Part shown: one piece after another, positions 11,927-49,193 of the stretch
Layout: each line of letters begins with the position of its first letter
How positions within the stretch are numbered: position 1 is the stretch's first letter
Source: an uncultured Victivallales bacterium
GTDB taxonomy: Bacteria > Verrucomicrobiota > Kiritimatiellia > UBA8416 > CAZWPN01
Length of the DNA: 64,000 nt
Direction of reading: 5' to 3'
NCBI GenBank assembly: GCA_964635275.1
Contig: CAZWPN010000005.1
Coordinates: 643-64,642 of the forward strand
Notes under the pieces: model-generated
The model's input: only the letters and a program-made list of their open reading frames with translations
The model's database searches: none
Told to the model about the DNA's origin: nothing
Translations under genes and position numbers: made by a program

Positions 11927-14181
11927 TGGGCGCGAGCGCACATCTTGCGATGGAGCGCCCAGCGTTGCTTTTCGGGCACGGGGAGTCGGATGGTCTTGTG
12001 GCTGTCGAGCGCGTTGATGGCTGTGGCGGTCCGGATGGGATGGCATGCTTTTTCCGGCGTGGAAAGGAGACCGTACGCGAGGACTTTGATTTCAGGCCTT
12101 TCATTGTTATGGCAAAGGAGTTGTTGGATGGCCTCGCCGTCATGCCAGTGGCCCATCAGGCCTTGTCTGGAAGTGGGCCCCTCAACTGCCTTGCCGAATT
12201 TGCCTCGTGGCTGGACTGCCTCAAAGCCAAGGATGGGCTGGTCAAGAAGACCGGCGCCAGGCCTACCGATGCAGCGGCGCCGTATTTGTTTCTTAACGAT
12301 CCGGTTCAGCAGTACCTGCTTCGCAGCGGCCGGACGCAGTTTGGGCAGATGAGTTTTCGCGATGTGAAGCGAATGCAACTCGATATCGAATGCCGGACAA
12401 CCCCGGGATACGAGTTTTGCAATGCGGACCGTGAGGGAGATTGCATACTTGCAATCGGCCTGGGTGATTCCGTGGGATGGGAGAGAATACTCTCCTCGGC
12501 GGAGATGTCTGAAAAGGTGCTGCTGGAGAATCTGGTTGCGTGCGTTCAGGAAAGGGACCCCGATGTAATAGAAGGGCACAATCTGTTCAACTTCGACCTG
12601 CCGTACATCGAGAAGCGGGCCCGACGTCACGGAGTGAAGCTTGCATTAGGACGCGACGGGAGTGAGCCGCGTAGTCGTCCTGGCCGTTTCACGGCCGGTG
12701 AGCGTACAATCGGATATGAGCGCTTTGAAATCTTTGGGCGGCATATCGTGGACACGTTTCTGCTGGCCCATGCGTACGACGTGTCGCATCGTGCTTTCGA
12801 TGGATTTGGCCTTAAGGAAGTAGCTGCGCAGCTTGGGCTTGCAGCCCCTGACAGAGAGCACATCCCTGGTGATATGATCGGGGCCACATTCCAGACTGAA
12901 CCGGACAGGGTGCTTCGTTACTTGCGGCATGACGTCATGGAGACTGGCAGGCTGAGCGAGGTCCTCTCCCGAAGTCAGTTTGTCCAGGGACAAATGTTGC
13001 CGCTCGGCTATCAATCTGTCTGCGTTCGTGGCAACGCGGCACGGATTGATTCGCTGATGACTCGCGAGTACCTGCGTCGTGGGCTATCACTGCCGCTGCC
13101 GGATGCTCCCCGCGAATTCGAGGGGGGGTATACGGACATCTTCGCTACCGGCGTTGTTTCGAACGTGCATCATTGCGACGTTCGTTCGCTATATCCATCT
13201 ATCATGTTGCAAGGAAAACTCGGTCCTCGACGGGACGAGGCTGGCGCGTTTCTTGAAATGCTCAGAGCTCTTACCCTGTTTCGCATCGAAGCAAAGGCAA
13301 GGGCGAATAACGCCGTCGACGCTTCCGAGCGTGTGGAATGGGATGCCGTTCAATCCACCTTCAAGACGCTCATCAACTCTTTCTACGGGTATCTCGGGTT
13401 TGGACAGGCTCGGTTTAGCGATTTCGCCCGCGCCGAAGAAGTGACGCGGCAAGGCAGGGAGATTCTATGCCGGATGGTGGCGAGGTTGAAGTCGCTGGGG
13501 GCCCGGCCTATCGAGATTGACACGGACGGCGTATACTTTGTGCCCCCGGATGGGCTGAATGATTCAGGAATGACAGCATTTCAACTGGATGTGGCCGCAG
13601 ACCTTCCGGACGGAATTCAGGTCGAGTTCGACGGTAATTACCGTGCGATGTTCAGTTACCGAATGAAGAACTACGCGCTATTGGGAAATGATGGTGCTCT
13701 TATCATCAAGGGTGCGGCACTCAAGTCGCGTGGACTTGAGCCTTTTCAGAGGCGGTTTCTGCGCGATATGTTGCGTCTGAAGCTGAGCGGAAACGATGCG
13801 CAACTTTCGGGCCTGAAGACGAAATACGAGAATGCCATTCGCAATAGGGAGTGGCCAATTCGCGAGTTGGCGAAAACAGAGACATTGCAGGATGCTCCCT
13901 CAACCTACAAGGCCAAGATGGCGAGGAGCGCCAGGTCGCGCAATGCAGCGTACGAGCTTGCATTGGCCTCGGGGCGTGAATACCGGGCTGGGGACCAAGT
14001 GTCGTATTACGTGGCCGGTAATCGAAAGACCGTGGCTGTGCATGAGGCGGCAAAACTGGTAAGCGACTGGAATCCCTGTCAACGGGATGAGAATGTGCCT
14101 TATTATCTTGCCAAGCTTGATGCCTTATACGCAAAATTCGAACAAGAGGAGACGCAGGATGAGTGGGCCTTCCCGGAATAG
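11926..14181 (+). CDS. polB: B-family DNA polymerase (DNA polymerase II-like)
   Basis: Exonuclease motifs ('LDIECRT' DxE; 'EGHNLFNFDLPYIEKR') and polymerase motifs ('YPSIM', 'NSFYGYLG', 'IDTDGVYF' motif C). Confidence 0.75.
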   Translation: MGASAHLAMERPALLFGHGESDGLVAVERVDGCGGPDGMACFFRRGKETVREDFDFRPFIVMAKELLDGLAVMPVAHQALSGSGPLNCLAEFASWLDCLKAKDGLVKKTGARPTDAAAPYLFLNDPVQQYLLRSGRTQFGQMSFRDVKRMQLDIECRTTPGYEFCNADREGDCILAIGLGDSVGWERILSSAEMSEKVLLENLVACVQERDPDVIEGHNLFNFDLPYIEKRARRHGVKLALGRDGSEPRSRPGRFTAGERTIGYERFEIFGRHIVDTFLLAHAYDVSHRAFDGFGLKEVAAQLGLAAPDREHIPGDMIGATFQTEPDRVLRYLRHDVMETGRLSEVLSRSQFVQGQMLPLGYQSVCVRGNAARIDSLMTREYLRRGLSLPLPDAPREFEGGYTDIFATGVVSNVHHCDVRSLYPSIMLQGKLGPRRDEAGAFLEMLRALTLFRIEAKARANNAVDASERVEWDAVQSTFKTLINSFYGYLGFGQARFSDFARAEEVTRQGREILCRMVARLKSLGARPIEIDTDGVYFVPPDGLNDSGMTAFQLDVAADLPDGIQVEFDGNYRAMFSYRMKNYALLGNDGALIIKGAALKSRGLEPFQRRFLRDMLRLKLSGNDAQLSGLKTKYENAIRNREWPIRELAKTETLQDAPSTYKAKMARSARSRNAAYELALASGREYRAGDQVSYYVAGNRKTVAVHEAAKLVSDWNPCQRDENVPYYLAKLDALYAKFEQEETQDEWAFPE

Positions 14182-34746: not shown

Positions 34747-36066
34747 ATGATGGCTAGCAATACTCCCGCTCAGCAGGATAGTGATGCCGGACGGCCATCT
34801 GTCCAGTCGATGGTAGAGTCGTTGCGGTCTATCGACTCCGTGCTTTCCCCTGACGAGGACATAGTCAGGCTTCCACTCAAGGACTTGCTCGCACTGCTTC
34901 CACGGAAGTACCTGACGTCGGATGCGACCAGCGTGGATGGCGTCACCGTACCGGTCCGTATCGAGAACCTCTTCTATCGGCTGTCCCGAGGTAAAGTGGC
35001 CATGCCAATGGAGCAACTTGCCGCCTCGCTTCCCTCCGATATGCTTCTTCCCCATGCTAAGGCCGACACCACGGAGATCTGTATCCCTCTCAACGTCCTG
35101 GTTGGCGCCATTCGGCCGTCGATCTTTCTCGATCGCATGGCATCACGGGTGCGCAGGGGGGATCTCTCTGAGTTTCCCGACCATTTCCCTGAGCTGAAGC
35201 ATGCACTGGCGCGCCTGCAGCCCCAGTCTGAGCCACATCACAATACGCCGGTTCCTCAACCGCCGTCGTCTGTCAGTGTGCCGGCTTCTGCCCCTGTTCG
35301 TGCCCAGAGACCTGCCGAACCTTCTTCGCTCATTCCGCCAGCCGCGCCTGTGCCACCGGTTTCCGCGTCGTCTCCGCGTCGCCTCGAATCCTTGGATTCC
35401 GCGGACGAAGGTGACTATATCGAACTGGAAACACTTGGCGGCGTCAATCTCAACGCCGCAACGGTAGCACAGTTGGTGACGCTCGACGGCGTGACCGCCG
35501 GTATGGCCGGGGCCATCGTTGCCTACAGGCAAACGCATGGGCCGCTGGTCAGCATCTTCGACCTGGTAAATGTGCCCCGCCTGGGACGTGGCACATTCCG
35601 CCGGATCACGGGCATGCCATATAGCGAAACGCGCAGGCACCGCCGACGGAAACTGGCAAGGTTGCTGAGACTGCCGCCGCGTGAGGTGGGGGACCTTAAG
35701 AAGGTGGCCGGGGCGATTTGCGGTTTGTCGGGCGTTGCAGGATGCCTGGTTTCGGACGCGGATGGCATGCTGATGGCGGAAAGCGGCGCCACCTCCTATG
35801 CCGCGCCGATGAGTGCGGTGATCCCGCGGATGTTCCGACTGATTTACGAAAACATGGCAGTTGCCAGCGTTGGGAAATTGGATTCGGTCTCGCTCTGCGT
35901 TCGGGACCGGCTGTATACGATCGTAGCTGGCGAGCGGTTCTGTCTGACCGTCGTCCATCAGACCAGTCGTCTGACCAAGACACAAATTACGACGATTCAG
36001 AAGCTGGCGGGAGAATTAGACTGGCTTCTGAGTCACCGCGGTTACATCGGGCGGGCGACAACATGA
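34747..36066 (+). CDS. Hypothetical protein combining an unknown N-domain, a Pro-rich linker, a ComEA-like helix-hairpin-helix and a C-terminal Roadblock/LC7-like domain
   Basis: HhH region 'LETLGGVNLNAATVAQLVTLDGVTAGMAGAIVAYRQTHGPLVSIFDLVNVPRLG'. The C-terminus 'VAGAICGLSGVAGCLVSDADGMLMAESG...' resembles Roadblock/MglB. Strong SD 'GGAGGG' before the ATG. Confidence 0.5.
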   Translation: MMASNTPAQQDSDAGRPSVQSMVESLRSIDSVLSPDEDIVRLPLKDLLALLPRKYLTSDATSVDGVTVPVRIENLFYRLSRGKVAMPMEQLAASLPSDMLLPHAKADTTEICIPLNVLVGAIRPSIFLDRMASRVRRGDLSEFPDHFPELKHALARLQPQSEPHHNTPVPQPPSSVSVPASAPVRAQRPAEPSSLIPPAAPVPPVSASSPRRLESLDSADEGDYIELETLGGVNLNAATVAQLVTLDGVTAGMAGAIVAYRQTHGPLVSIFDLVNVPRLGRGTFRRITGMPYSETRRHRRRKLARLLRLPPREVGDLKKVAGAICGLSGVAGCLVSDADGMLMAESGATSYAAPMSAVIPRMFRLIYENMAVASVGKLDSVSLCVRDRLYTIVAGERFCLTVVHQTSRLTKTQITTIQKLAGELDWLLSHRGYIGRATT

Positions 36067-36097
36067 GTTGATACGTTTCACACAGTGGAGTACGGGA

Positions 36098-37735
36098 ATG
36101 GGGCAGGGTGCGACATCGGCGAAGGACAGCGCGTCTGGGACAAGAGACCGTGCCCATCAGGATACAGCCTCCGTGGACAAGATGTTGGCGGGCGTGTTCT
36201 CGTCGGCATTCGCCGTTCGGGCTCGCATTGCGCCTGTCCGCTATTCTGCGGCGACTGATACGGTGACCATCGCCGTCGCCGACCAGACCCGCATCGCTAC
36301 CGTCTCCGCGATGTTCAGGTTTCTTCTACACGCAGGCCAAGTTGAGTTCAAACCTGTGACGCGTGAGGAACTGGAGAAGGCGCAGGCTGACTTTCGTGAG
36401 CTGACCGAAAAGGTATTCCCTTCTACAAAACCCAAGGGACGGCAGTCGATAGGGGGGGCAACCAGCATCAATGTGGCCGCCGGAAGAGCGGCCGACATCG
36501 GGCGGAGCGGCCTGTTCAAACTCGGCGGTGGGCCGCTCAAACAGACCGTGTCGCTGCCCGGCTATGCCGAGATGGGCCCAGCGTTGCTCGCGGCAGTCTC
36601 GCTGCTCGCCCAGGATCGGCTTCGGCAATCGCCTGAGATGCCGGTAGTACAGGCACGGGTTCGGCACAGTCAACTGCTGGCCGTTCGGGTGGGTCTGGGT
36701 GAGGCCCAAACCGATGCCGTAGTTCTTGCTGCTTGGTTGTCCAGCCTGCCGGGGCGGGCGGACGTCCTGTCCCGCATCCCAAATCCGTTTCACCTTGACC
36801 AGATTCTGGAGCCGACGCAGTCCGGCCCCCTTCGAACGGAAGCGCGTGTCCTGGAAGTGGTTAGGGCCTACGAAACGCTAACCAGTGAGAATCCAGACGA
36901 TGCGCACGATGTCGGCGCCACTCGACGTCGGCTCAATGCCATGGTGCCGGGCGGCGATCCGGACGTCATCGAGCCGTTCCTTCAGATAATGATGGACGAG
37001 CAGTTTCTTGCTTCACTCGAACGAAATGCCGGATCGGTCTTGCTGGCTGATCAGGCTGAGCAGGCGACCGCCGCGCTCGCCGTCCCCCTTGCTGCAGATG
37101 GGTACCATGTGGAAACCGTTCCCGATATCGCCGGGATTCATGCGCGGGTAGCAGCCTCGCCTCCGGATGTTCTGATCCTCTCTGCCTCCCTGCCAGGCGG
37201 CAGTGTGCTTGGACTGTGCCGCGAACTCAGGCGGCAGGCCGTCACGCGCCATGTTCCCATCCTGGTATTGACCGACAATGCCGACAACAGGCAGTCTGCG
37301 GAGTTTCTTCGTGCTGGCGCGGATGATGTTCTGGCCAGGTCCGCCGGACCGGAACTGACGCTGCTGAAGGTGGAGCGGCTGATGGGACACCGCGCAGCGT
37401 TCTCCGACAGCGACGGCGTTGTGGGGTCCCTGCGCGATATGGAGTTGGCGGACATGGTGCAGATCCTCGGGGCCGGTGGGCGCAACGTGGAGATCCGGCT
37501 GCGCCGTGAGCGGCGCGAGGGGCGCCTCTACGTGCGGGAAGGCGCCATTATCCATGCCGAATGCGGACCGATTCAGGGGGCTCCCGCTTTCTTTGAACTG
37601 ATGCGCTGGCGGGAAGGGTCGTTCGTCACGCTGCCATGCACGCGATTCCCCGAGCGAACCATCCACGAAACCGTGATGGGGCTCTTGATGGAAAGTGCGC
37701 GTCAGGCCGACGAACGGCTGGATCCGGAAGTCTGA
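36098..37735 (+). CDS. Regulatory protein with a GspE-N1-like (T2SSE_N) N-domain, a degenerate receiver (pseudo-REC) and a DUF4388-type C-terminal domain
   Basis: N-domain 'IAPVRYSAATDTVTIAVADQTRIATVSAMFRFLLHAGQVEFKPVTREEL'. The REC-like block has 'PDVLILSASLPGG', with Ser at the phospho-acceptor position. The C-terminus 'LRDMELADMVQILGAGGRNVEIRL...REGAIIHAECGPIQG..AFFELMRWREGSF' fits DUF4388. Confidence 0.55.
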   Translation: MGQGATSAKDSASGTRDRAHQDTASVDKMLAGVFSSAFAVRARIAPVRYSAATDTVTIAVADQTRIATVSAMFRFLLHAGQVEFKPVTREELEKAQADFRELTEKVFPSTKPKGRQSIGGATSINVAAGRAADIGRSGLFKLGGGPLKQTVSLPGYAEMGPALLAAVSLLAQDRLRQSPEMPVVQARVRHSQLLAVRVGLGEAQTDAVVLAAWLSSLPGRADVLSRIPNPFHLDQILEPTQSGPLRTEARVLEVVRAYETLTSENPDDAHDVGATRRRLNAMVPGGDPDVIEPFLQIMMDEQFLASLERNAGSVLLADQAEQATAALAVPLAADGYHVETVPDIAGIHARVAASPPDVLILSASLPGGSVLGLCRELRRQAVTRHVPILVLTDNADNRQSAEFLRAGADDVLARSAGPELTLLKVERLMGHRAAFSDSDGVVGSLRDMELADMVQILGAGGRNVEIRLRRERREGRLYVREGAIIHAECGPIQGAPAFFELMRWREGSFVTLPCTRFPERTIHETVMGLLMESARQADERLDPEV

Positions 37736-37766
37736 AATTACGGATGTGGCCCAACTGGAGCTTGTT

Positions 37767-38258
37767 ATGATGTGGTTTGGACGGAAGAAGGATGGGGCGG
37801 TCTCCAAGGTCAGGGCCGCAGCCATCCAGGGGTTTGAATTGGCGATACGCCGTGAGGAGTCGCGCCTCTACGGGCTGGCGCTGTATTTTGAATGCCTGAG
37901 TCTTTTCCGGTCCGGACAGGAGGGGCTGATCGAGACCGAGCGAAAACAGTTCCGAAACCTGATCCAGGGGGGACGCAAGCAGGTGGATGATGCCACAACC
38001 CTGCTGGAGCATGTGCGGGCTGGGAGCCAGCCTCCGAAGGCGATCGAGCACTTTGTCTTCACCTATTCCAACGGCCATCCAACTCCGGTTGAACTCATTG
38101 CAAGGGCCGATGCGCTGGTGGCAGCTTTCCGAGCTGTGTTCCCGGTGCGGCCGATGGCCCAGCCGTTCACCCCCGAGGAGACCTACCGCCTTCTTGAGGC
38201 GGCCGCCGTCATGCCAGGAATCGCTGACGCAATACACAAGGCGTCAGGCGTCAAGTGA
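37767..38258 (+). CDS. Hypothetical protein (163 aa), co-oriented with the mgl module
   Basis: An ORF with an ATG start immediately after the preceding stop. No recognisable motif. Confidence 0.4.
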   Translation: MMWFGRKKDGAVSKVRAAAIQGFELAIRREESRLYGLALYFECLSLFRSGQEGLIETERKQFRNLIQGGRKQVDDATTLLEHVRAGSQPPKAIEHFVFTYSNGHPTPVELIARADALVAAFRAVFPVRPMAQPFTPEETYRLLEAAAVMPGIADAIHKASGVK

Positions 38259-38554
38259 CAGGACTGCTTCAGAGTTGACCTGATCCTCGGCTAAGGAAGG
38301 CAAAGCTTTGTGCGGACTCGTGTGCGTCCTTTGTTTACGGCTCGCTCGGAGAGCTCGCCCCACCTGGGGAACATATACAGACTGTATGTTTCGTCAGGTA
38401 GGGCGACGCCTCCGGCGGAGCCGCTGCCGCAAGGATGTCCGCAATGGGTCCCGCCGGTAGCTCAGCGCTTAGGCTAGGATTTGGGGTTAAGGATCGAGCT
38501 TGCGCGTGCGCCTTTTGTTGGGTTAGCATTCAACCATCATTCGGGAGAAACCGC

Positions 38555-39199
38555 GTGTCATTCGTTAATCTGGCCCGCAGGGAAATCAGTTTCAAGATCG
38601 TCTACTACGGACCGGCGCTCAGCGGCAAGACGACGAATCTTGAACTACTACACCAAGTGATGCCCGCCGAAGCGAAGGGGGCGATAACCATGCTCTCCAC
38701 TCGACAGGACCGGACTCTATACTTCGACTTCCTGCCGCTCCGGTCGGAAGCCATCAAGGGCTATACCTGCCGGTTTCAACTTTACACGGTGCCCGGACAG
38801 CCGGTGTACAATGAGACACGGCGCATCGTACTGGCAAGCGTGGACGGCATTGTCTTCGTGGCGGACTCGCAGTGGCAGGAGATGGAGAACAACGTAGGCA
38901 GTTTTGAGAACATGATAGAGAACCTGCGGCAGCACAACCGTGACATGGCCGACATACCCCATGTCCTGCAGTTCAACAAACGCGATCTTCCCAATGTTGC
39001 ACCGACCGCGTACATGGATTTCCTGCTCAACCAGCAGAAAACCAGGGCGCCGTTCTTTGAGGGCATCGCCACAAAGGGTGCCGGCATCTACGAGTGCCTC
39101 AATACAGTCTGCAAACTCGTTGTTGCCCAGTTCGTTGAGACGCACAACAAGCCTAAGGAACAAGCCGAAACCTGGGACTTTCAAGAGCGAAAGGCATGA
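38555..39199 (+). CDS. mglA: Ras-like small GTPase MglA
   Basis: 'ISFKIVYYGPALSGKTTNLELL', 'TLYFDFLP', 'YTVPGQ' and 'QFNKRDLPN' are nearly colinear with M. xanthus MglA. GTG start with SD 'GGGAGA'. Confidence 0.85.
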   Translation: MSFVNLARREISFKIVYYGPALSGKTTNLELLHQVMPAEAKGAITMLSTRQDRTLYFDFLPLRSEAIKGYTCRFQLYTVPGQPVYNETRRIVLASVDGIVFVADSQWQEMENNVGSFENMIENLRQHNRDMADIPHVLQFNKRDLPNVAPTAYMDFLLNQQKTRAPFFEGIATKGAGIYECLNTVCKLVVAQFVETHNKPKEQAETWDFQERKA

Positions 39200-39254
39200 T
39201 GTGAGACCCGCTGCGGTCGGATATACGCTGACCGGACCTCAGGAGGGAGTCCTT

Positions 39255-39692
39255 ATGGATTCTCTACAGGGGTTTCTCAAGCTGTCGGGCGCCGAGTCTG
39301 CGCTGGTCGCCGATTACGGCGGGAACTTGATTGTCGCCTGCGGTCCAGCCGGTGGCGACTCCTCGCTCCACACGATGGGCGCGCTCGCGGCTGGCGCCTT
39401 CAGCGCAACGCGCGAACTGGCCGCGCTCGTCCACGAGCCGGTTTTTCAGACCATGATTCACCAAGGTGAACGGCACAGCATGTTTCTTCAGGGCATCGGA
39501 AGAGAGTTCATTATACTTGTAGTTTTCGATTCAAAAACTACAGTTGGACTCGTGAAACTCTACACGGGTAAGCTCGTTCAGGAGATGGAACCCTTTCTTC
39601 GCCAGGCCGCACTTCAGCCTATCAGCAGCGGAGGGCCATCGTTTGAGGTAAGCGTCGGCGGCGTGTTCGATCACCGGTTAGCAAAGGAATAG
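39255..39692 (+). CDS. mglB: Roadblock/LC7-domain protein MglB (predicted MglA GAP)
   Basis: Roadblock fold signature 'GAESALVADYGGNLIVACG...SLHTMGALAAGAFSATRELA'. It is immediately downstream of mglA, with SD 'AGGAGGGAG'. Confidence 0.72.
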   Translation: MDSLQGFLKLSGAESALVADYGGNLIVACGPAGGDSSLHTMGALAAGAFSATRELAALVHEPVFQTMIHQGERHSMFLQGIGREFIILVVFDSKTTVGLVKLYTGKLVQEMEPFLRQAALQPISSGGPSFEVSVGGVFDHRLAKE

Positions 39693-39829
39693 TCGCCTTC
39701 GACCAGAATCAAGATCACACCGTATGGGTCAATCTCCAGCGCCTGTCCAGGTGCTCTTCGCCTCGCCGCCTGCATGGTTATGGTGCAGGTTGTGAGGTCT
39801 TCATCTCCTGTCCACCGGTTGGTTCGGCG

Positions 39830-42800
39830 CTAAGGGTTGAGGAGTAAGTCGGGCGGGCTGATGAAGATCCGGTCGCCCGTGACGAATGCGAAGCGGCCGT
39901 TAGCCAGGAGGTGGACCGCGTTCACCTCGGCTCCGCAGGGCACGCGGTCTCCGGACAGTTTCGTCATACCGTTGCCATCCAAAACGTACAGCAGCGGATG
40001 CACCCGCACCAGGAAGATGCCGTCGGGCGAGGGAAAGGCACTCACCGGCATGTAATTCTCCACCGCGATTTGCCTGGTGTCGGCGCCAGTTGAGATATAC
40101 CGCTGCCCCTTGCCGGTGTGCAATACCGGCATGCAACCGGGTTTGGCCTCCAGAAGGCCCGGGTCAAACCAGCGCAAGCCTTCGGTATCAACCAGGCATT
40201 TGCCGCCATACTCCAGCGGCGTCGGTTTGATGCCTTCGATTCGATACGTGTTGAACACCCAGTCATTCTCGCACAGCAAGTACAACTCACCGCGCAAATC
40301 GCGCGAAGCGCGCCCTTTGGGCACGGGGTTCCATGTCCTCCCGTCCCAAATGTTTCCCCGGAAGTAGACGCGGCCATCCGCGGCAACCGCCGGCGGTTCC
40401 CGTCCCGCGAATTCCCTGACGCCGAGGCTGACCAGTTTGAGCACGCCGCTCTGCATGTCAGGTGCCGCCTTCGGCGGCTGATTTGGAATCAGGACGAACG
40501 TGGCGCCGGCAACGTTGACCACCGCGCTCCCCTGATCGCTGACGACCAAATCGCCGCCACCGGTCATCTTCCACGACACCTCGTTTGTGCCATCGGTTCG
40601 TATCAACGTCCTGCGATCGGACGTCCAGTACCAGACGTTCCCGAAACCGCCGGCCGTGAAGGTGGGCAGGGCCGGCGCCAGACGCCAGCCGGACCATGCC
40701 AGCGCGTTTGTTCCGGCGGGTTGCGCCGGGTCGTACACCAGTAGTTGTTCGCTGCGCAGTATCCAGATGCGTCCGTCCGGCGCCTCGCGGAGCGCGATGG
40801 TATTGCCCGGTCGCACCCCTTCCTGCCAGCCGTAATCGGCCGCGCCCTGGGCGGCCGAGCCGATGATCAGCCGGTCCCTCCCATACGAATAGGCCAGCAC
40901 CCCGTTGGTCGTGCCGAGGAATTGATAAGCGCCTGAGTCTAGCATGGGTGGCACGGCCGGCGGGGTGCATGGCGCGAGTTGGGTCTCTTTCATGTCTTCG
41001 CTGGAAAACCGGGAGAGTTGTTTGCCCCTCCAAACATACAGGTTCCCGTTGCCATCGCTCCGGAATGCGCCGACGCGCGGAAATTTCACTTCACGCAGCC
41101 CCCCACGGATCAGATCAATGATAGCGCCGCGTGACGGCACGACCAGGCTGTCCCGGCCCAGTGTGCAGACGGGAAACGGAAGGACTCCCTCCCATTGTCC
41201 CCAGGAAATTGCGGGACTGAGATCGCCGTTGCGATAAACAAAGCAGTAGCCGTAGCACTGGATAACCAGCCCTTCGGGATGCGGAAGAACTTGCGCGGTA
41301 TGTCCGATGTCCCGCTCCCACCTCTGTGTGCGTTGCCCGTCCCAGCGCGAGGCGGTGCGGTGACCGATCGTCCAGATTCCGCCGATCATGTCCGTGTGGA
41401 TCGGCCCCTCGGCGTACCGCGGGTCGGCGTAGAGTTCGGCAGCGCGCCGGGCTCCATCCTGACGAAATTCATAGATCGGCAACCGCGCCGTGTCGCCCAT
41501 GATGGCGCCGGGCCCGACAGCCCAGACCCTGCCGCGCGCCGCCGAGAGAGAGTGCGCCTGAACCTTGTGAAACGCCGCCTGGCGATGCGCCAGATCTATT
41601 GCCATCACACCACCATCAATGAGGATCCAGACCACACCAGCGGAGTCGATTTCAAGCGCTCGCCCCATTACTTTGCGATCCGCCACCGTCGCGGGCAACG
41701 CCTGCAACCGCCGCGGATTGAGGGTCCATGCATCGTCCAGGGCATGAGTCGTTACTTGCGCTGACGGACCTCCGTCGAGCGTCAGGCGCAACGGTTCGTC
41801 CGAGACCACGCCAAACCCATCCGCCGCATACACCTCGATTTCATGCAGGCCCGGTTGCAGGGACGGAAGGTCGCCGCCCTCAGGCGCCGCTATCCTGTCA
41901 GCAAACTCGCCGTCGAAAAAGGTAAGAATCCGCAGTTTGTAGAGCGGTTCGGAACCGGCGATCCGGCAATCGAGTCGGTGCGCCGTTCCCGTGCTGACGA
42001 CTTCCCCGGCGATTGTCAGTTTTTGCGGGGCCTGAAAACGCAGTGTGTTGTCAGTGAGCATGTAGAGACCGTTCGTTCCGGGATAGACGCGACCGGAGAC
42101 AGGGTAGACCGCTGTGTAGAATATGCGGTTCGGCCCCATCCAGCCGCCTCCGGCGGCCGGCACAAAAGCTTCATTGTTCTGCACGGCGAGACTGCGCGGC
42201 GCGCCGTTCCCCGCAGGGTGACCGAGCAGTGAGGACAACACCATCTTCGGCTTTCCCTCGTACACGACCGGCAGACGCCCGGCACCCGCGCCAACTGCGA
42301 TACCGTCGAGGCCGACAGACAGCGGCGGCGCTTGCCTCTCGGCCCAGAGGTAGGTGCTGCCGTCGCTAAAACGGGTCGCGCCCGTTGTCACACTCTCGTC
42401 CCAGGCGCGCGTGGGCGCGTTCGGCCAGTTCGTGACGATGCCGTCCGTCACCAGGCATGACCCGGACTGAGTGTCCTGGAAACCGATCTGCAACCGGCCC
42501 TTGTCGTCAACGCTCATTCTTTGAGGGATGCGGTTTCCAAGATTCATGTCCAGGTGGCGCCATTCCTTCCCGTCGTGACTGCTGAGTTTGCCCGGAAAGT
42601 CGAACAGGAACGCCCACATTGTCCCGCTGCTGTCACGGACGCAAGGACCGGCCAGCTTCCACTTCGGCCTGTTGGCGATGCCGGCAGCCTGCGGCAGCGG
42701 CTCGGTGGTGCGCCAGACTGCCATCTTCCCGTCACCGGCCAGAATCAGGTCGTCGCCGACAACTGCGAGGCGTTCGACCCGTGGAATAGGCAGGCCACTG

Positions 42801-43805: not shown

Positions 43806-46800
43806 CTATGGGGTGAGACGCAGGTCGGTCGGACTGATATAGAGACGGGAGTGGACAGCCAAGGCCCAGCGGCCGTCGGCCAGCGGCCAAACCCTGAGAC
43901 CCCATCCAGGATCGAGTTCGTCGCCGCAGGGAACGGCGCTGCCCGGGATGCGTGTCAGTCCCTGCGCGTCAAGCCGGTGGAGTTTGGCGCCGACGCGCAT
44001 CAGGAACTGACCGTCGCCCAGTGGCAAGGCCTGCAACGACCCGTGGGGATCGATCCTGATCCGCGTCGCGTTCACGTCGCTCGACACTTCCGGCGTCTCC
44101 TTGCTCGCATACCAGACCGGCAGGCAGCCGGGGTTGGCTTCCAGGATGCCCGGGTCGTACCAGCGCAAGCCATAGGCATCGATCAGACACTTCTCAACTT
44201 GCCCCAGCGGGATGGCCTTTACTCCGTCGATGCGATAGGCCACGGGCAGTGAACTGCGCTCCATGCAGAGCAGAAAGATCTCCCCGCGCGGATCGAGTGA
44301 GGCCCGTCCGTCCGGTACGCTCTGCCAGGCATGGCCGTCCCAGATCTTGCCGCCGAAATACACCCGCCCATCGGCGGCAACAGCCGGCGCCCCATCGCCT
44401 TCGAACGACTTGGCGCCGCGCTTGACAAGTTCCAGCACCGCGCTGCGCAGGTCCTTCACGCGCTCCGGCGGCTTGCCGGTCGAGAGAAGATAGGTATCCG
44501 TTCCGGCGCCAATCGCCGCGGCGCCGTTGTCGCTGACGATGATTGCGTTAGCGCCGGGATACCTCTGCGCCCACGTCATATCGTTAGTACCATCTGAAGA
44601 AGCGAATCCAGTCCGTTCCGGATTGCCGTACCAGACGCGACCGAATGCGCCCACCGCGAATCGCTCCTGCACCGGCGCCGCGCGCCAGCCCTGCCAGGCC
44701 GAAGGAATCGCGTCGGCGGGTTGGGTTGGGTCATACACAAGCAACTGCGCCTGACGCATGATCCAGATTCGCCCGTCAGGCGCTTCGCGGATTGCGTGTG
44801 TGCGGCCAGGCTGAACGCCGTGTTGCCAACCATATTCAGCCGCACCTTCGTCAGCCCGGCCGGCATACAATCGCTCGCTCCTGACCGTATAGGCCACGAC
44901 CCCGCCAGACGTGGCCAGAAACTCGTATCCGCCATCATCCCAAAGCGGGGGCATGGTGGGCGGCGGGGAATAGACGAGCTGGGTCATCGCCAGGTCGTCG
45001 CCTGAAATTCGGTAGAACTCCTTGCCCTTCCAGACATAGAGGCTGCTATCGGGGCCGGCCCGGTATGTATCGCCGAACGGGATCTTCCGGTCGCTGGGTC
45101 GGCCACTTTCCACCTCCAAAAGCAGCCGCTGCAGCGGCAGCAGCAAATAGTCGCGGCCCAGGGGATAGGCAATTCGGTCCGCCTGCTGCCAGCGGTACTT
45201 GAAGTCGCCCGGCCATGGGATGGACTTGCTGAGTTCGCCATCGCGATAGATCAGGTAGTGCCCACGCGTATAGATGATGGTGCCTTTAGCGCTCGTCGCG
45301 ACGAAGGGATCATAGTCGAGTGTTCGCTCCCACTGTCGCGTCTGTTTTCCGTCCCAACGTACGGCAGACCGGTGGCTGAGCGCCCAGATCCCGCCTTCGC
45401 CATCGGCGCTGATTTGCTGGTGGGCGTAGGAGGAGTCGTCGTAGAGGTCGACCGCGCGCCGGATGCCGTCGTGTCGCAATTCAAGAAGGGCGATGTGCAC
45501 CCCGTCCGAGCTTCGTTCCCCGCGCGCCCAGACGCGTCCGCGAGCAGCCAGCAGTTCCTGAGCGGGACAGCGGTAAAACGTGGCCTTCCGCTCCGCCGGC
45601 GCGAGCGCAACGACACCGCCCTCGACCAGAATCCAGACCACGCCATCGGAATCAATCTCGAGTGATCGTTCAAGCGCCGTGCGGCCGGCTATTGTCGCGG
45701 GCAGCACCTGCAGGCGCCGCGGTTTGAGATCCCAGTCCTCGCCCAGTTCAAGGTTCACGACTTCAAACTCGGGACCGCCATCGAGCGTCAGTCGAAGCGG
45801 CTGCTCCGATACCACGCCGAAGCCGTCCGCCGCGTAGACTTCAAGCATGTGATCGCCCGGCTTGATAGGCGGCAGATCGACACCGTCGGGCGCGGCGATC
45901 GAATCGAGAAACTCGCCGTCCAGGAAGGTCAGCAGCCGCGGTTTGTAAGGAGGTTCAACGCCGGCAATCTTGCATACCAAACGCCGCAGTTTTCCATCGG
46001 CAAGCACCGTCCCATCGATCGTCAGCGTCTGCCGTGGCTGATAGCGCAGTGTGTTGCCGTCGACGAGGTAGTGGCCGTTGGTTCCCGGATAGACTCGGCC
46101 CGCAACGGAGTAGTGCGCATCGCGGAAGATGCGCCATGAACCCACCCATCCGCCGCTGGGGCCAGGGATGAACGCTTCATTGCCCTGCAGCGTCAGGAAT
46201 CGGGGATTGCTGCTCGCCTGTGATCGCGGCAATGGCAGTTTCAGTTGCCCGTCATAGATCACGGACAGACGGTCTTTGCCTGTAATGTCGGCCCTGATGC
46301 CGTCGGGCCCAATGGACAGCGGAGGCACCTGCGTTTCTGTCCAGCGCCCGTCCGCGAAGGCCCACACCTTCTCTGCGCTACAGCGATAGCACACGCCGTC
46401 CGGGCCGAGCCAGAAATAACGGTAGGGAGGCTTGTCGTAGTAATCGTATTCCCGCTCACCGTCCCAAAGAGAGCGGCCGTTGTAACGCCAGAGCCATTCG
46501 GCTTTACCTGCTGCTATGTCATGCGATCGGAACGGGCTGCCGTCGCGGAACCGGGTTGCGCCCTGCCTTATGCTTTCAACCCAGGCTCGGACAGGCTGAT
46601 TGGGCCAGTTGGTGACTGCTCCATCACGGAAGAGCGCTGACCCGCTCGGCGCATGCGCGGAGCCAATCTGCAGCATCCCTTTGTCGTCGCCGGTCATGTC
46701 TTGGGGGCTAAGGTTCTGCAACTCGAGGGGGAACTGCCCCCACTGCTTGCCGTCGTGATGACAAATCTTGCCTGGGGCGTCGAGCAGGAATGCCCATAAG

Positions 46801-48050
46801 GTCCCGCTGATGTCGCGGACGCAGGGTCCGGTCAGCATCCACTCGCGCCGTTCGTCGAGTCCCGGGGCCGCCGGAAGGGGGGCGGTGGTCCCTTTGCGCC
46901 GCTCGTCTAGACCTGCGGCAGCGGGCAACGGTTCGGTGGTCCGCCACACCACGATCTTGCCGCCCCCGGCCATGATGAGATCGTCGCCGACTGCGGCCAC
47001 GCAATCGACTCTTGGTAACGGCAGGCCGGAGGCAGGCGTGATCATGACGGCCTCGTTCGTACGGAATACCGCCAGCATGCCGCCGGGTAATGCCGCGAAG
47101 CCCACACCCGTTGCAGCGAACACGACGCGTGACTTGCCCGGCTCGGCAAGAGAAGCCCCATTAAGGATGGGGCCGGATTCCTTCAGTTGCACTTCACTGC
47201 GGCCGTCGGCCGCGTACCAGACAAAGCCGCGATGCGGACGGCTGAGCAGTCGGCCGTCGGGGGCCGTGGCTACGCCATAGAACCAATCTCCCCGTCCCAG
47301 GTTCAGGCGTTCGGGCTCTTTGCCCGGCGTGCGCGGATCGAGCAGGAATGAGCCTGCGCCTTTGTTGTTGCACCCGCCCGAGACCAGGCGATCGGCTCCC
47401 AGGCGAAACGGGCCGTTGCCCGTGCCATCGTCGGCGAATAAAGGAGCCGCCTCGGCTATGACTTTCTCCGGCGTAGCCCACACGGCTATGGAAGCGAAGA
47501 ACAGCACGACATGCCCAGGCTTCCATTCGCATGGCTGGCGGAACCTTATCCCGTAGCCCGGCTGGCCCATCGGCCATTCTATCAGAGTCTCGTTCTTGCC
47601 CGCGACGAGGAGCCGCTCCCTGTTCTGGATCCATGCCCGACCCAGCGCATCCACGTACCAGTGCTCGTAAGGCACGTTCGGCGTGGTGGTAACGGGATTG
47701 GCCGTGGCGCCGGCGAGGCGGTGGATCGCTAAGCGGGTCTTCCGGTCCTGAAGCGCAAAGACTTCGCGCCCCGTGTTGTCGGTGAGGGCAACAACCCCGT
47801 CGAGCGCCAGAGCGATCCAGCCTTCCTCCGGGTGTTGAAGGTCCATCCACAGGACTTTCGTCGCCGTGCGGACATAGATATCGCCAGCCGCGTTGGCCCG
47901 CAAGTCAAGGATCTGTCCCGGCGGCGATGGCAGTGTGCGCACTGGGTCCGCGGCGATAACGCAAGAAGCCGCAGTCAGCGCCATCAAGCAAACTATACAT
48001 GGTCTCATGCTATGCTCCCGGACGGCGCTGCCCAACGGCGCTACCTTCAT
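43806..48050 (-). CDS. Giant secreted beta-propeller-repeat protein, paralog B (tandem duplicate of 39830-43804)
   Basis: N- and C-termini are shared with paralog A ('ADPVRTLPSPPGQILDLRANAAGDIY(I/V)RTATK(I/V)LWMDLQ'). 1414 aa. The likely true start is 'MRPCIVCLMAL' (~48008). Confidence 0.7.
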   Translation of the reverse strand: MKVAPLGSAVREHSMRPCIVCLMALTAASCVIAADPVRTLPSPPGQILDLRANAAGDIYVRTATKVLWMDLQHPEEGWIALALDGVVALTDNTGREVFALQDRKTRLAIHRLAGATANPVTTTPNVPYEHWYVDALGRAWIQNRERLLVAGKNETLIEWPMGQPGYGIRFRQPCEWKPGHVVLFFASIAVWATPEKVIAEAAPLFADDGTGNGPFRLGADRLVSGGCNNKGAGSFLLDPRTPGKEPERLNLGRGDWFYGVATAPDGRLLSRPHRGFVWYAADGRSEVQLKESGPILNGASLAEPGKSRVVFAATGVGFAALPGGMLAVFRTNEAVMITPASGLPLPRVDCVAAVGDDLIMAGGGKIVVWRTTEPLPAAAGLDERRKGTTAPLPAAPGLDERREWMLTGPCVRDISGTLWAFLLDAPGKICHHDGKQWGQFPLELQNLSPQDMTGDDKGMLQIGSAHAPSGSALFRDGAVTNWPNQPVRAWVESIRQGATRFRDGSPFRSHDIAAGKAEWLWRYNGRSLWDGEREYDYYDKPPYRYFWLGPDGVCYRCSAEKVWAFADGRWTETQVPPLSIGPDGIRADITGKDRLSVIYDGQLKLPLPRSQASSNPRFLTLQGNEAFIPGPSGGWVGSWRIFRDAHYSVAGRVYPGTNGHYLVDGNTLRYQPRQTLTIDGTVLADGKLRRLVCKIAGVEPPYKPRLLTFLDGEFLDSIAAPDGVDLPPIKPGDHMLEVYAADGFGVVSEQPLRLTLDGGPEFEVVNLELGEDWDLKPRRLQVLPATIAGRTALERSLEIDSDGVVWILVEGGVVALAPAERKATFYRCPAQELLAARGRVWARGERSSDGVHIALLELRHDGIRRAVDLYDDSSYAHQQISADGEGGIWALSHRSAVRWDGKQTRQWERTLDYDPFVATSAKGTIIYTRGHYLIYRDGELSKSIPWPGDFKYRWQQADRIAYPLGRDYLLLPLQRLLLEVESGRPSDRKIPFGDTYRAGPDSSLYVWKGKEFYRISGDDLAMTQLVYSPPPTMPPLWDDGGYEFLATSGGVVAYTVRSERLYAGRADEGAAEYGWQHGVQPGRTHAIREAPDGRIWIMRQAQLLVYDPTQPADAIPSAWQGWRAAPVQERFAVGAFGRVWYGNPERTGFASSDGTNDMTWAQRYPGANAIIVSDNGAAAIGAGTDTYLLSTGKPPERVKDLRSAVLELVKRGAKSFEGDGAPAVAADGRVYFGGKIWDGHAWQSVPDGRASLDPRGEIFLLCMERSSLPVAYRIDGVKAIPLGQVEKCLIDAYGLRWYDPGILEANPGCLPVWYASKETPEVSSDVNATRIRIDPHGSLQALPLGDGQFLMRVGAKLHRLDAQGLTRIPGSAVPCGDELDPGWGLRVWPLADGRWALAVHSRLYISPTDLRLTP

Positions 48051-48216: not shown

Positions 48217-48609
48217 TTACTCCCGCCAGAGCAATAAACCGGAGACGCTTGAGAAGTGCGTGTCGTAGGTTACCAGGCGAGACCCGCTTTCGGTGGCGTG
48301 GGCGGCGATCCAAATATCATTGACGGGGATTGGCGTCCCCGCTTTGCGAAGCCGGTGTTTGATGGTGCCGAATATATCCGATGTCTCCCGCGTCGCTGAA
48401 AGGACGCGCACAGTTGGCCGGCGAAGAAAACCATCCAGTTGGGTGCGGTTTTCCATTTCCCTGGCGCCCCCCTTGAAACCCGCATAGAGTTCCCCGAGAA
48501 CGAAAACAGACATGAAGACCGTATCAGCATGGCCCAACACATCCAGAACAGCTGTCTCGCCTTGGAGCAGACGCGTGTAGGCGTTGGTATCCAAGAGTAT
48601 CTTGCTCAC
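48217..48609 (-). CDS. vapC: PIN-domain ribonuclease toxin VapC
   Basis: 'ILLDTNAY', an acidic PIN triad context, and 'VTYDTHF'. There is a 4-bp overlap with the upstream antitoxin. Confidence 0.85.
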   Translation of the reverse strand: MSKILLDTNAYTRLLQGETAVLDVLGHADTVFMSVFVLGELYAGFKGGAREMENRTQLDGFLRRPTVRVLSATRETSDIFGTIKHRLRKAGTPIPVNDIWIAAHATESGSRLVTYDTHFSSVSGLLLWRE

Positions 48610-48863
48610 TTCCAGTCTCCCGGATCGACAGTTTCCATGTCGGCGACACGTTCCTCAAACGCCCGGGCATCTTCCTCTTTCCACGTTCCGCAGAACTCCA
48701 AAAAATCGCCCCGATGTGGTGGTTCGGCGGCCAACTTGATGCCCAACCCCTCCGCCAAGAGTTGTTTCACAAGTACATTCATACTGACAGATTGTTCCTT
48801 GGAACGTCGCTTGATCAGCTCCGCCAACTGATCGTCAAGACCATGTATGGTGAGTGAGTTCAT
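48606..48863 (-). CDS. vapB: VapB-like antitoxin
   Basis: A small protein ('MNSLTIHGLDDQLAELIKRRSKEQSVSMNVLVKQLL', RHH/AbrB-like) translationally coupled to vapC. Confidence 0.6.
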   Translation of the reverse strand: MNSLTIHGLDDQLAELIKRRSKEQSVSMNVLVKQLLAEGLGIKLAAEPPHRGDFLEFCGTWKEEDARAFEERVADMETVDPGDWK

Positions 48864-49193
48864 TCCGGCCTCCATATGAATCGCATAGTGAGTCACAGTG
48901 TGGACCAGATAGTACGTATTACGACTCACAACGTCAACCAACGAATTTGAGCCACATGATTTCCCATCCGGGCGCTCTATTTCATTCACTGCGAAAGACG
49001 ATGGCATAAAGGACTGGTTTTGGTGCTCTCAGCCCAACCTCGGCGCTCCGACAAAGCCCTCTCACACTGCTGTTGCCCTCCTGCCCGCTTCTGGTGCAGC
49101 TTCTGCCATGAATTCATTCATGCATGCCGATCTCAACGGGCGTGTGCCCGTAATACTTGAAAAGCGAGATCCCGGACCACCCCGAAGTTCTGG

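Follow-up and report, generated by a model that had tools for sequence, protein, structure and literature searches.

The five co-oriented genes at 34747-39692 of the 64-kb stretch of DNA analysed here (the window) lie on the + strand in the order p1, p2, p3, mglA and mglB (Table 1). They encode a Group-1 MglA, its MglB and three non-enzymatic partner proteins. The set is found again in bacteria of the Verrucomicrobia/Lentisphaerae (PVC) type, and the locus is therefore a real, lineage-specific variant of a known polarity switch. We propose that it is a PVC-clade MglA small-GTPase switch with dedicated proteins, which would position or activate, in a GTP-dependent manner, a machine encoded elsewhere; we put the probability of this reading at roughly 0.55. 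A preliminary description of this DNA had correctly placed three co-oriented genes upstream of mglAB, with the right coordinates, but had p1 and p2 swapped: the HhH/Roadblock protein comes first and the GspE_N/REC/PATAN protein second.

Table 1. Genes, protein domains and intergenic gap of the locus, in positions of the window.
Feature	Position	Strand	Remarks
p1	34747..36066	+	439 aa; ORF, HHH_3 at 54.8 bits
p1 N-terminal domain	34855..35121	+	aa ~37-125; unassigned beta-alpha repeat fold
p1 Pro-rich low-complexity linker	35194..35421	+	sequence and homologue alignment
p1 helix-hairpin-helix (HhH), ComEA type	35440..35613	+	Pfam HHH_3 E 1e-14, aa 232-289
p1 divergent Roadblock/LC7, C-terminal	35725..35955	+	family-level support
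p2	36098..37735	+	545 aa; DUF4388, Response_reg and MshEN matches; NCBI gene call also 545 aa
p2 GspE_N/MshEN-like remnant	36161..36388	+	Pfam MshEN 22.2 bits, just under 23.1 cut-off
p2 degenerate HD-GYP-fold domain	36563..37033	+	no metal-binding His/Asp
p2 pseudo-receiver (REC)	37037..37351	+	Pfam Response_reg 43.8 bits
p2 PATAN (DUF4388/PatA_N)	37424..37717	+	Pfam DUF4388 E 1.2e-18, 67.8 bits, cut-off 25
p3	37767..38258	+	163-aa conserved orphan
Intergenic gap p3/mglA	38259..38554	.	296 bp
mglA	38555..39199	+	214 aa; Group-1 MglA GTPase
mglB	39255..39692	+	145 aa; Roadblock/LC7

The GTG start of mglA lies behind a GGGAGA Shine-Dalgarno sequence, and the 214-aa start is also called independently on a near-identical JGI contig. 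Comparison with PDB sequences gave an E of 9.4e-57 for M. xanthus MglA (6h17) and of 1.4e-55 for Thermus MglA (3t12); the protein is colinear with both over residues 1-193, and is ~50% identical over the G domain to MglA of M. xanthus and Thermus thermophilus. R53-T54, TVPGQ and NKRD are conserved, with the intrinsic Arg finger (DRTL) adjoining the G2 Thr and TVPGQ forming the G3 motif. As judged by the sequence criteria of PMC4316618, the window protein is clearly a Group-1 MglA. The colinearity with M. xanthus claimed earlier therefore stands, but the P-loop included in that claim, GPALSGKTT, is non-canonical: residue 21 (Ras G12) is Gly in the two MglAs of solved structure, Ala in the window and Pro elsewhere in the clade. 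Despite this replacement, mglB has been kept. Its product scores 30.2 bits against Pfam Robl_LC7 (cut-off 23), and the profile of the MglB clade matches M. xanthus MglB (6h5b) with an E of 2.9e-26; with translation from an alternative GTG at 39201 the protein would be 18 aa longer, and this extension aligns with the N-termini of homologues. These matches identify it, at the sequence level, as an orthologue of the MglB GTPase-activating protein and the predicted GAP of MglA. PDB and Pfam matches for both proteins thus support the initial description of a genuine MglA followed by a Roadblock MglB with non-canonical partners. The pair shares the Arg finger, TVPGQ, NKRD and a co-encoded Roadblock MglB with the Group-1 systems of M. 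xanthus and Thermus thermophilus (Wuichet & Sogaard-Andersen 2015); it differs from them in the loss of Gly21, in having no RomR/RomX, Frz, MglC, SgmX or AglZ genes near the window locus, in that p1, p2 and p3 come from other families, and in its host, which to judge from the contig labels of homologues most likely belongs to the PVC superphylum. Its location outside the Myxococcota, first put forward as a novelty, is not one, since Group-1 MglA has been documented in many phyla (PMC4316618).

To judge conservation, 32 distinct related loci were compared, the window's own strain being left out; where named, almost all are labelled PVC MAGs. p1 accompanies p2 in 28 of the 32 loci, in 24 of them directly upstream on the same strand, while p3 adjoins p2 in 23 of the 30 loci where it could be seen; mglAB would be visible in 21 loci and occurs in 14 of these. 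The strands of mglAB and p3 differ in distant loci, mglAB being divergent from p1 in all 14 that carry it and p3 lying on the other strand in 20 of 23, so that the gene set is conserved and the co-oriented layout is lineage-specific, being found only in the window, in L023 and, for p1-p2-p3, in L005. All five families occur together in 14 independent loci whose gene order is not that of the window, and four of the five in many more, which takes the adjacency beyond chance. An association kept through rearrangement is a classic sign of functional coupling. Related loci thus keep these neighbours, as the preliminary description had proposed to check, and what it called a five-gene arrangement holds as a gene set but not as an arrangement. 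These data clearly show that p1, p2 and p3 are co-inherited with mglAB across many PVC genomes despite rearrangements of order and strand.

However, p1-p2 occurs without mglAB nearby in 7 of the 21 observable loci, and the trio may therefore not need MglA, or may use one whose gene lies elsewhere. In four loci (L001, L008, L016 and L027) the sequence reaches more than 2 kb beyond p1 on its upstream side and contains no mglAB there. L025 is rather closely related, its p1 being 62% identical, and its upstream side ends at the contig edge; in it, p1-p2 is followed by unrelated genes and p3 is missing. In the window itself, p3 and mglA are separated by the gap listed in Table 1, in which a sigma-70-like promoter, a terminator and an Rfam match were looked for and none was found; mglAB is probably a transcription unit separate from p1-p3. 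Together with the much tighter pairing of p1 with p2 than with mglAB, this would fit p1-p2(-p3) being a self-contained signalling or scaffold module; mglAB would then often lie beside it, for example because of common regulation or a shared genomic island, without taking part in its function. We consider this rather unlikely, as mglAB stays adjacent although its relative orientation is inverted in the 14 other loci as compared with the window lineage, p1 carries a Roadblock domain (the partner fold of small GTPases), and there are independent reports from other phyla of an association of PATAN with MglA/B.

With regard to p2, its sequence suggests a four-domain adaptor in which degenerate signalling domains precede a PATAN domain. 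Profile searches on the upstream genes, the check proposed at the outset, did find Roadblock, REC and DUF4388 similarity, and the GspE-N1-like domain, pseudo-receiver and DUF4388 domain first described in p2 are all present; the fourth domain, a degenerate HD-GYP, had been overlooked. The first half of GspE_N/MshEN is deleted in the window, whereas distant homologues have the full-length domain. Neither the HD dyad nor any conserved His is left in the HD-GYP fold, and no His/Asp of the site is conserved in the family; in these losses, and in being embedded between GspE_N and the pseudo-receiver, it differs from the degenerate HD-GYP protein Bd1817 (PDB 3tm8). Aligned with CheY, the window receiver has Ser for D57, Gln for D13 and Arg for K109, and only 3 of 20 family members have Asp at D57. 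Judged by sequence, p1, p2 and p3 all lack an intact catalytic site and an intact phospho-acceptor site. p2 resembles the cyanobacterial PatA-type regulators PixG, PixE and LsiR, in which PATAN is the output domain, in combining PATAN with REC; unlike in those proteins, REC precedes PATAN, the receiver has no phospho-acceptor Asp, no Che-type kinase is encoded nearby, and dead HD-GYP and GspE_N domains are added.

The dead HD-GYP domain, together with the full MshEN of relatives, could also make the module primarily a c-di-GMP receptor, in which p2 would bind c-di-GMP and gate MglA signalling. Such a role would not conflict with the main explanation and would add an input to it. We regard it as unlikely, since the window p2 has no N-terminal half of MshEN, no His/Asp of the HD-GYP site is conserved, and the conserved neighbours of the locus include no GGDEF or EAL gene; moreover, the leading Arg and trailing Gln of what we take to be the MshEN motif are not kept in one p2 homologue (L004).

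The architecture first ascribed to p1, a Roadblock domain with a ComEA-like HhH and a Pro-rich linker, was confirmed, the Roadblock at family level. In the window sequence this domain is sub-threshold against Robl_LC7 (E 0.027, 14.6 bits), but 14 of 19 homologues match Robl_LC7 (best E 7e-8) and 12 of 19 match LAMTOR5, and the family profile matches a solved Roadblock protein (7f8f, E 0.0011). The label "MglC-like" could not be upheld: the profile matched neither MglC nor MglB in the PDB, and hhalign gave only a weak alignment with the MglB family (E 0.0023, probability 12.6%). The N-domain is a tandem duplicate in several homologues, and the linker varies strongly in length among the 19 aligned. 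The ComEA type of the HhH, the name "competence ComEA-like" given to p1 homologues by JGI annotators, and the pilus connections of both GspE_N and PATAN might suggest a role of the module in competence (DNA uptake) or in some other DNA transaction. This appears very unlikely: inspection of p1 by eye shows neither a signal peptide nor a transmembrane segment, so that, unlike ComEA, it is presumably cytoplasmic, TIGR ComEA models are far under their cut-offs (TIGR00426, 36.3 bits against 53.1), and no com, pil or dpr genes occur in the window or in conserved flanks.

The third upstream gene, p3, was rightly called a 163-aa unknown: it has no Pfam, NCBIfam or PADLOC match, nothing credible among PDB sequences and, by eye, no hydrophobic segment. 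It falls into 102 clusters among 1.84 billion representatives (17 homologues were aligned), and searches of 5.8 billion proteins gave only 5 relatives of p1 (word-indexed search) and 7 full-length relatives of p2. Chance adjacency of unrelated genes in one genome can be dismissed, being already refuted by the synteny data on the five families; all three partner families are, moreover, very rare in the databases.

In the switch that we propose, MglA would cycle between GDP and GTP forms under the control of MglB, and the replacement of Gly21 probably alters this cycle. Docking, GAP or GEF platforms of small GTPases are usually formed by Roadblock/longin dimers. p1 would provide a second Roadblock platform, tied to DNA through its ComEA-like HhH and reaching other partners through its N-domain and linker. 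p2 would act as the output adaptor, its PATAN domain contacting a secretion-ATPase-type machine (type IV pilus/type II secretion-like) or another localised complex, and p3 could be an accessory regulator, possibly RomX/RomY-like in role. The output proposal draws on cyanobacterial PATAN domains, which bind PilC and the N-terminal region of PilB1 (bioRxiv 10.1101/2021.06.11.447907); to name a type IV pilus or a type II secretion-like machine as the output is thus a guess by analogy. As stated in the preliminary description, RomR-like, Frz and type IV pilus genes were absent from Pfam scans of ORFs of at least 200 aa in the window (with shorter ORFs covered within 30-45 kb), and pilus, secretion-ATPase and gliding genes were neither present in the window nor conserved in the flanks of related loci. 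It should be underlined that missing pilus genes in one 64-kb window say little in favour of the non-motility role suggested in the preliminary description.

MglAB-PATAN neighbourhoods, GspE_N-PATAN fusions and MglA outside the Myxococcota are already known. MglA and MglB genes have been found near PATAN genes (PMC4316618), which bears out the likeness to published neighbourhoods noted earlier; two PATAN proteins were recovered by MglA proximity labelling in M. xanthus (PMC11580455), and GspE_N+DUF4388 fusions have been described (bioRxiv 10.1101/2021.06.11.447907). The window locus resembles these neighbourhoods (Makarova et al. 2006; PMC4316618; PMC11580455) in encoding a PATAN protein beside mglAB. 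There, however, PATAN is an occasional, variable neighbour, whereas here it belongs to a fixed GspE_N, dead HD-GYP, pseudo-REC and PATAN architecture with two more fixed partners, p1 and p3, in a clade-wide gene set. The Streptomyces conservon (CvnA-D) is likewise a fixed multi-gene module, built around a GTPase of the MglA family together with a Roadblock protein and a further protein of unknown function, but it uses a Group-2 MglA (no Arg finger, GTPGQ) and a histidine kinase, and none of p1, p2 and p3 is related to CvnA or CvnC. In M. xanthus, the GYF domain of GltJ binds the Pro-rich sequence of AglZ next to MglA-GTP, and ZnR-GYF proteins show no correlation with mglAB outside the Myxococcales (PMC11135422). 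p1 is unrelated to AglZ, and the GYF protein of the related loci differs from GltJ in having no ZnR and a TPR C-terminus; it was not found in the 64-kb window. As in the focal-adhesion switch, however, 10 related loci encode this membrane protein with an N-terminal GYF (GYF_2-TM-TPR) beside the Pro-rich p1 and MglA, and by analogy with GltJ-GYF/AglZ it may be a partner of p1 in many relatives.

The three genes upstream of mglA and mglB, here called p1, p2 and p3, were sought in other genomes. All three families are rare: a word-indexed search of 5.8 billion proteins retrieved seven full-length relatives of p2, five of p1 and four of p3. Pattern scans gave 16 full-length loci in species-representative genomes (a weak 101-residue match, L022, being left out) and 18 in metagenomes, to which contig look-ups added further loci. 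After duplicates and the window's own strain had been dropped, 32 distinct loci were counted. The named genome contigs carry the labels Lentisphaerota/Victivallales, Kiritimatiellia, Verrucomicrobia or 'bacterium', with a single exception labelled Gemmatimonadales.

p1 accompanies p2 in 28 of the 32 loci (directly upstream on the same strand in 24), p3 adjoins p2 in 23 of the 30 loci in which this could be observed, and adjacent mglA and mglB were found in 14 of the 21 loci with at least 1.5 kb visible upstream. The mglAB pair is divergent from p1 in all 14 loci having it, and p3 lies on the opposite strand to p2 in 20 of 23. The co-oriented order p1-p2-p3-mglA-mglB is common only to the window and L023, a near-identical strain, with L005 sharing the p1-p2-p3 part. 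These differences in strand and order elsewhere indicate that the gene set is conserved and that its co-oriented order in the window arose by rearrangement within this lineage. Thus, of the five-gene arrangement that the preliminary description had singled out as apparently undescribed, the gene set is conserved across related loci, whereas the co-orientation is confined to the window's lineage. That the neighbours had come together by chance, a possibility raised in the same description, is ruled out by a gene set kept despite rearrangement. Such conservation argues strongly for functional coupling, and we put the probability that these genes form a functionally coupled module at roughly 0.8. 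Against a coupling of p1-p2 with mglAB stands the observation that mglAB is not nearby in seven of the 21 observable loci. Moreover, in L025, a moderately close relative (p1 62% identical), p1-p2 is followed by unrelated genes, and together these loci point to the p1-p2 pair as the tightest core.

Coordinates of the MglA module, of a conserved neighbour in related loci and of surrounding features (window positions unless a locus is named)
Feature	Position	Strand	Remarks
Five co-oriented genes, p1-p2-p3-mglA-mglB	34747-39692	+	ORFs
p1, 439 aa	34747-36066	+	ORF; first of the five genes
p2, 545 aa	36098-37735	+	Starts 31 nt past p1; Pfam: MshEN/GspE_N, receiver, DUF4388
p3, 163 aa	37767-38258	+	ORF
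mglA, 214 aa	38555-39199	+	GTG start six bases after GGGAGA
mglB	39255-39692	+	ATG start at 39255; start 2-56 nt past mglA stop, by start chosen
GYF-TM-TPR gene (examples)	L001:12579-13739; L019:8158-9369; L006:12090-13226		Seven further loci; usually divergent from p3
Family-B DNA polymerase	11926-14181	+	DNA_pol_B and exonuclease domain
Tandem paralogues, 1324 and 1414 aa	39830-43804; 43806-48050	-; -	49% identical; convergent on mglB
Likely VapBC-type toxin-antitoxin pair	48217-48609; 48606-49007	-; -	Overlapping ORFs
Giant protein, 2675 aa	51426-59453	-	TPR/YfiO-like repeats and alpha-2-macroglobulin core (MG2, bMG3, A2M_BRD, A2M)
Tandem array of four paralogues, ~270-380 aa	59662-63960	-	C-terminal Laminin_G_3 (LamG)

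Profile searches did match the Roadblock, REC and DUF4388 domains that had been proposed for the upstream genes, the Roadblock at family level. The gene order given earlier had to be corrected, since the HhH/Roadblock protein (p1) comes first and the GspE_N/REC/DUF4388 protein (p2) second. In p1, an N-terminal domain is followed by a Pro-rich linker, a ComEA-type HhH (HHH_3, 54.8 bits, Pfam) and a C-terminal domain. The latter is sub-threshold for Roadblock in the window copy alone (E 0.027), while Robl_LC7 was matched by 14 of 19 p1 homologues (best E 7.3e-8) and LAMTOR5 by 12 of the 19, and the p1 family profile matched the PDB Roadblock protein 7f8f over 87 columns (E 0.0011). As judged by these family-level matches, the p1 C-terminus is a divergent Roadblock. 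Its profile retrieved no MglB or MglC chain from the PDB at E of 1 or below, where the MglC structure is one that we only assume to be included in the copy searched, and hhalign against the clade's MglB gave a probability of 12.6% (E 0.0023). A true ComEA was rejected: the HhH is there, but no N-terminal hydrophobic segment that could serve as export signal or anchor was seen by eye in the sequence, and the ComEA models scored below their cut-offs (TIGR00426, 36.3 versus 53.1; TIGR01259, 32 versus 152).

With regard to p2, the match to PF14332 (DUF4388/PATAN) reached 67.8 bits (cut-off 25) over profile positions 2-121 of 122, and the receiver fold was matched by Response_reg at 43.8 bits (Pfam). 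Compared with CheY, the window receiver has Ser for D57, Gln for D13 and Arg for K109; in the p2 family the equivalent of D57 is Asp in just three of 20 members, and that of D13 is Gln or Pro. Read from these residues, the domain is a pseudo-receiver without phospho-acceptor Asp and acidic pocket, and a phosphorylatable response regulator was rejected. In PatA-type regulators PATAN stands at the N-terminus, ahead of a receiver that can be phosphorylated, whereas in p2 a dead receiver is followed by PATAN.

Between the GspE_N remnant of p2 and the receiver lie ~157 strongly conserved residues without any sequence-profile match; sequence-level searches were blank, and this central domain was identified solely by fold search. 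Its AlphaFold2 model, from six homologues, was confident (mean pLDDT 86.8, pTM 0.83), although the alignments behind the structure models were shallow, with 4 and 6 sequences. Among 19 homologues no His is invariant, a manual comparison with the canonical HD-GYP motif puts Ser-Ser or Ser-Gly in place of the HD dyad, and Pfam HD_5 was matched at E 0.13 or weaker in two of the 19. According to the model, the central domain is an HD-GYP fold, predicted to be catalytically dead; an active HD-GYP phosphodiesterase was rejected because p2 lacks the metal-binding H...HD...H...D and GYP motifs.

The N-terminal MshEN match of p2 is 22.2 bits, under the Pfam cut-off of 23.1, and a full MshEN with the 24-residue c-di-GMP motif of the published consensus was not found. 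GspE_N/MshEN is whole in distant p2 homologues, whereas its first half is gone in the window's lineage (window 36098-36400), a loss common to L005 and the p2 relative P0003, as opposed to L001, L003, L004 and other p2 homologues. In the same lineage the p1 N-domain is single-copy and the linker short; the window lineage is a reduced form of the module of Lentisphaerota/Kiritimatiellia MAGs. With three degenerate signalling domains and a PATAN, p2 looks like an adaptor.

p3 had no match in Pfam, NCBIfam or PADLOC, and its family profile retrieved only designed proteins from the PDB sequences (E at least 0.044). The family is small, comprising 102 clusters (50% identity) in 1.84 billion representatives, and longer p3-containing proteins (250-450 aa) carry N-terminal extensions without Pfam domain, giving no informative fusion. 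The 296-bp gap between p3 and mglA contains nothing recognisable; no sigma-70 promoter was found, the two terminator-like hairpins were weak and fewer than in shuffled sequence, and there was no Rfam family in 34-40 kb of the window. An anti-phage defence system was dismissed, PADLOC giving 0 matches for all five proteins. Taken together, our comparisons demonstrate that p1, p2 and p3 are co-inherited and that none has an intact predicted catalytic or phospho-acceptor site.

The window MglA matched the solved MglAs of M. xanthus (6h17, E 9.4e-57) and T. thermophilus (3t12, E 1.4e-55) in the PDB search and is colinear with both over residues 1-193; G1 (GxxxxGKT), G3 (TVPGQ) and G4 (NKRD) were all found in the alignment, and the 214-aa call is identical on the JGI contig L023. 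Group-1 MglAs are recognised by an intrinsic Arg finger beside the G2 Thr together with the TVPGQ G3 motif (Wuichet & Sogaard-Andersen, PMC4316618). Since both features are present, with R53-T54 (DRTLYFDF) and YTVPGQ unchanged across the window protein and nine clade members, the window protein is, on its alignment, a Group-1 MglA. MglB scored 30.2 bits for Robl_LC7 (cut-off 23, Pfam), its clade profile matched the MglBs of M. xanthus (6h5b_B, E 2.9e-26) and Thermus (1j3w, E 3.3e-18), and the NCBIfam Thermus-type MglB model gave 59 bits, under its 200-bit equivalog cut-off. Starting instead at an in-frame GTG at 39201 would lengthen the protein by 18 residues, alignable to the N-termini of homologues; the better Shine-Dalgarno sequence precedes the ATG at 39255, which is also the JGI call. 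The PDB and profile matches confirm the MglA followed by a Roadblock MglB of the preliminary description and demonstrate, as far as sequence can tell, a genuine Group-1 MglA/MglB pair at this locus.

The P-loop GPALSGKTT, however, is not canonical as had been supposed, since at residue 21 (the Ras G12 position; codon at 38615-38617) the window and L023 have Ala, where the MglAs of M. xanthus and Thermus have Gly. Among the related PVC loci, the 14 distinct ones with an MglA all have Pro here (GPPL[SCG]GKT). The window MglA thus lacks the P-loop Gly21, which is not a formal defining feature of Group 1. In Ras, G12P is the only G12 substitution known not to be transforming, and by this analogy the residue-21-substituted MglAs could plausibly still cycle, though with altered kinetics. 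MglAs that have kept MglB typically have Gly21, and Milner et al. proposed that Ser21 of Bdellovibrio MglA implies a GTP-locked protein, explaining the loss of mglB (PMC3983030). In contrast to Bdellovibrio, where Ser21 occurs without mglB, every mglA of this set with Pro21 or Ala21, in the window and in the related loci, has mglB beside it. Natural G21P/A substitutions with mglB kept bear directly on the proposal that a residue 21 other than Gly gives a GTP-locked MglA and a useless MglB (PMC3983030).

Ten loci contain a sixth conserved gene adjoining p3. Its product of ~380 aa (GYF-TM-TPR) has GYF_2 at the N-terminus, TPRs at the C-terminus and a hydrophobic segment; no homologue was found in the window (tblastn, best E 0.91). 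Through its GYF domain this neighbour recalls M. xanthus GltJ, whose GYF binds a Pro-rich sequence of AglZ beside MglA-GTP, and outside Myxococcales ZnR-GYF proteins are reported not to follow mglAB (PMC11135422). The GYF-TM-TPR protein, unlike these, has no ZnR domain, and it is a candidate counter-example to GYF proteins not tracking mglAB outside that order.

Roadblock/longin dimers are generic platforms for small GTPases (MglB, Ragulator, Mon1-Ccz1). As a working mechanism for the coupled module, MglB would be the GAP of MglA, as its sequence suggests, and p1 would offer MglA or MglB a second Roadblock platform, with a possible link to DNA through its HhH, which is of the DNA-binding type. 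In relatives, the Pro-rich linker of p1 may bind the GYF membrane protein, in analogy to AglZ-GltJ, and p2 would be the output adaptor via PATAN. The PATAN of cyanobacterial regulators binds the N-terminal region of PilB1 as well as PilC and is enough to switch phototaxis (bioRxiv 10.1101/2021.06.11.447907), and proximity labelling of M. xanthus MglA recovered two PATAN proteins (PMC11580455). By analogy with these precedents, the target is most likely a secretion-ATPase-type machine encoded elsewhere in the genome; no genes for such a machine were found in the window (ORFs of at least 200 aa, Pfam) or conserved in the flanks of the related loci. Nor did window ORFs of at least 200 aa contain the Pfam architectures of RomR, Frz, SgmX or AglZ, the libraries used containing no RomX or RomY profiles. 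This specific wiring of p1, p2 and p3 with MglA and MglB is tentative, and we consider it somewhat less likely than not. As an addition to the coupled-module explanation, the dead HD-GYP of p2 might bind c-di-GMP.

A more far-reaching reading, which we consider unlikely, is a self-contained five- to six-component MglA system of PVC bacteria with a cycle unlike that of Myxococcus or Thermus, in which a machine would be positioned relative to nucleoid or envelope, unrelated to motility polarity. Its components would be the G21P/G21A MglA, MglB, a Roadblock scaffold that binds DNA, a PATAN adaptor made up of pseudo-domains throughout and a new small protein, with GYF-TM-TPR as a frequent membrane anchor; MglB might have the substituted MglA as its substrate, or might serve chiefly in exchange or docking. 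If true, this would be small-GTPase spatial organisation in largely non-motile cells.

Among bacterial Ras-like polarity switches MglA is the best understood, nearly everything known of its mechanism coming from Myxococcus, with a contribution from Thermus and Bdellovibrio. Its occurrence outside the Myxococcota is well documented, PATAN genes have on occasion been reported beside mglA of Group-1 and Group-5, and the 2014 survey has Verrucomicrobia under Group-5 MglA only (PMC4316618). GspE_N+DUF4388 fusions and MglAB-PATAN neighbourhoods have also been remarked upon (bioRxiv 10.1101/2021.06.11.447907), and the general MglA-PATAN theme is already known. In the searchable literature we found no report of the fixed PVC gene set, the p1 architecture, a dead HD-GYP inside a PATAN adaptor, the p3 family, the GYF-TM-TPR neighbour or a clade-wide G21P/A substitution with mglB kept. 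The clade-wide, tightly linked PVC set supplies concrete candidates for MglA partners beyond Myxococcus, namely a second Roadblock platform fused to a DNA-binding HhH, a PATAN adaptor of dead HD-GYP, REC and GspE_N, and a new orphan family, and a vague, long-noted association of PATAN near MglAB thereby becomes testable pairs. It should be underlined that this is useful to the polarity field, and testable, rather than paradigm-changing, and the carriers are mostly uncultured MAGs.

The two large tandem paralogues next to mglB each have a signal-peptide-like N-terminus, with only faint Pfam matches to Reg_prop and BiPBP_C. Both recur in the near-identical L023, no homologue of the 1324-aa copy was found in L001-L022, and the two were rejected as members of the module. 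The likely VapBC-type pair consists of a 130-aa ORF, annotated on L023 as a PIN-domain protein, and an overlapping upstream ORF for a short putative antitoxin. The labels of the homologues' contigs, together with context genes such as a DUF1559-like segment and the LamG arrays, suggest that the window comes from the PVC superphylum. Cumulative GC skew climbs until ~40 kb and then drops, with its turn at ~38000-42000 matching the switch from mostly plus- to mostly minus-strand genes at the boundary between mglB and the large paralogues; this could be a replication-related switch or a mere effect of gene orientation. The family-B DNA polymerase lies amid LPS and sugar-nucleotide genes, in a housekeeping stretch with mreBC-pbp2-rodA, rng and lptD.
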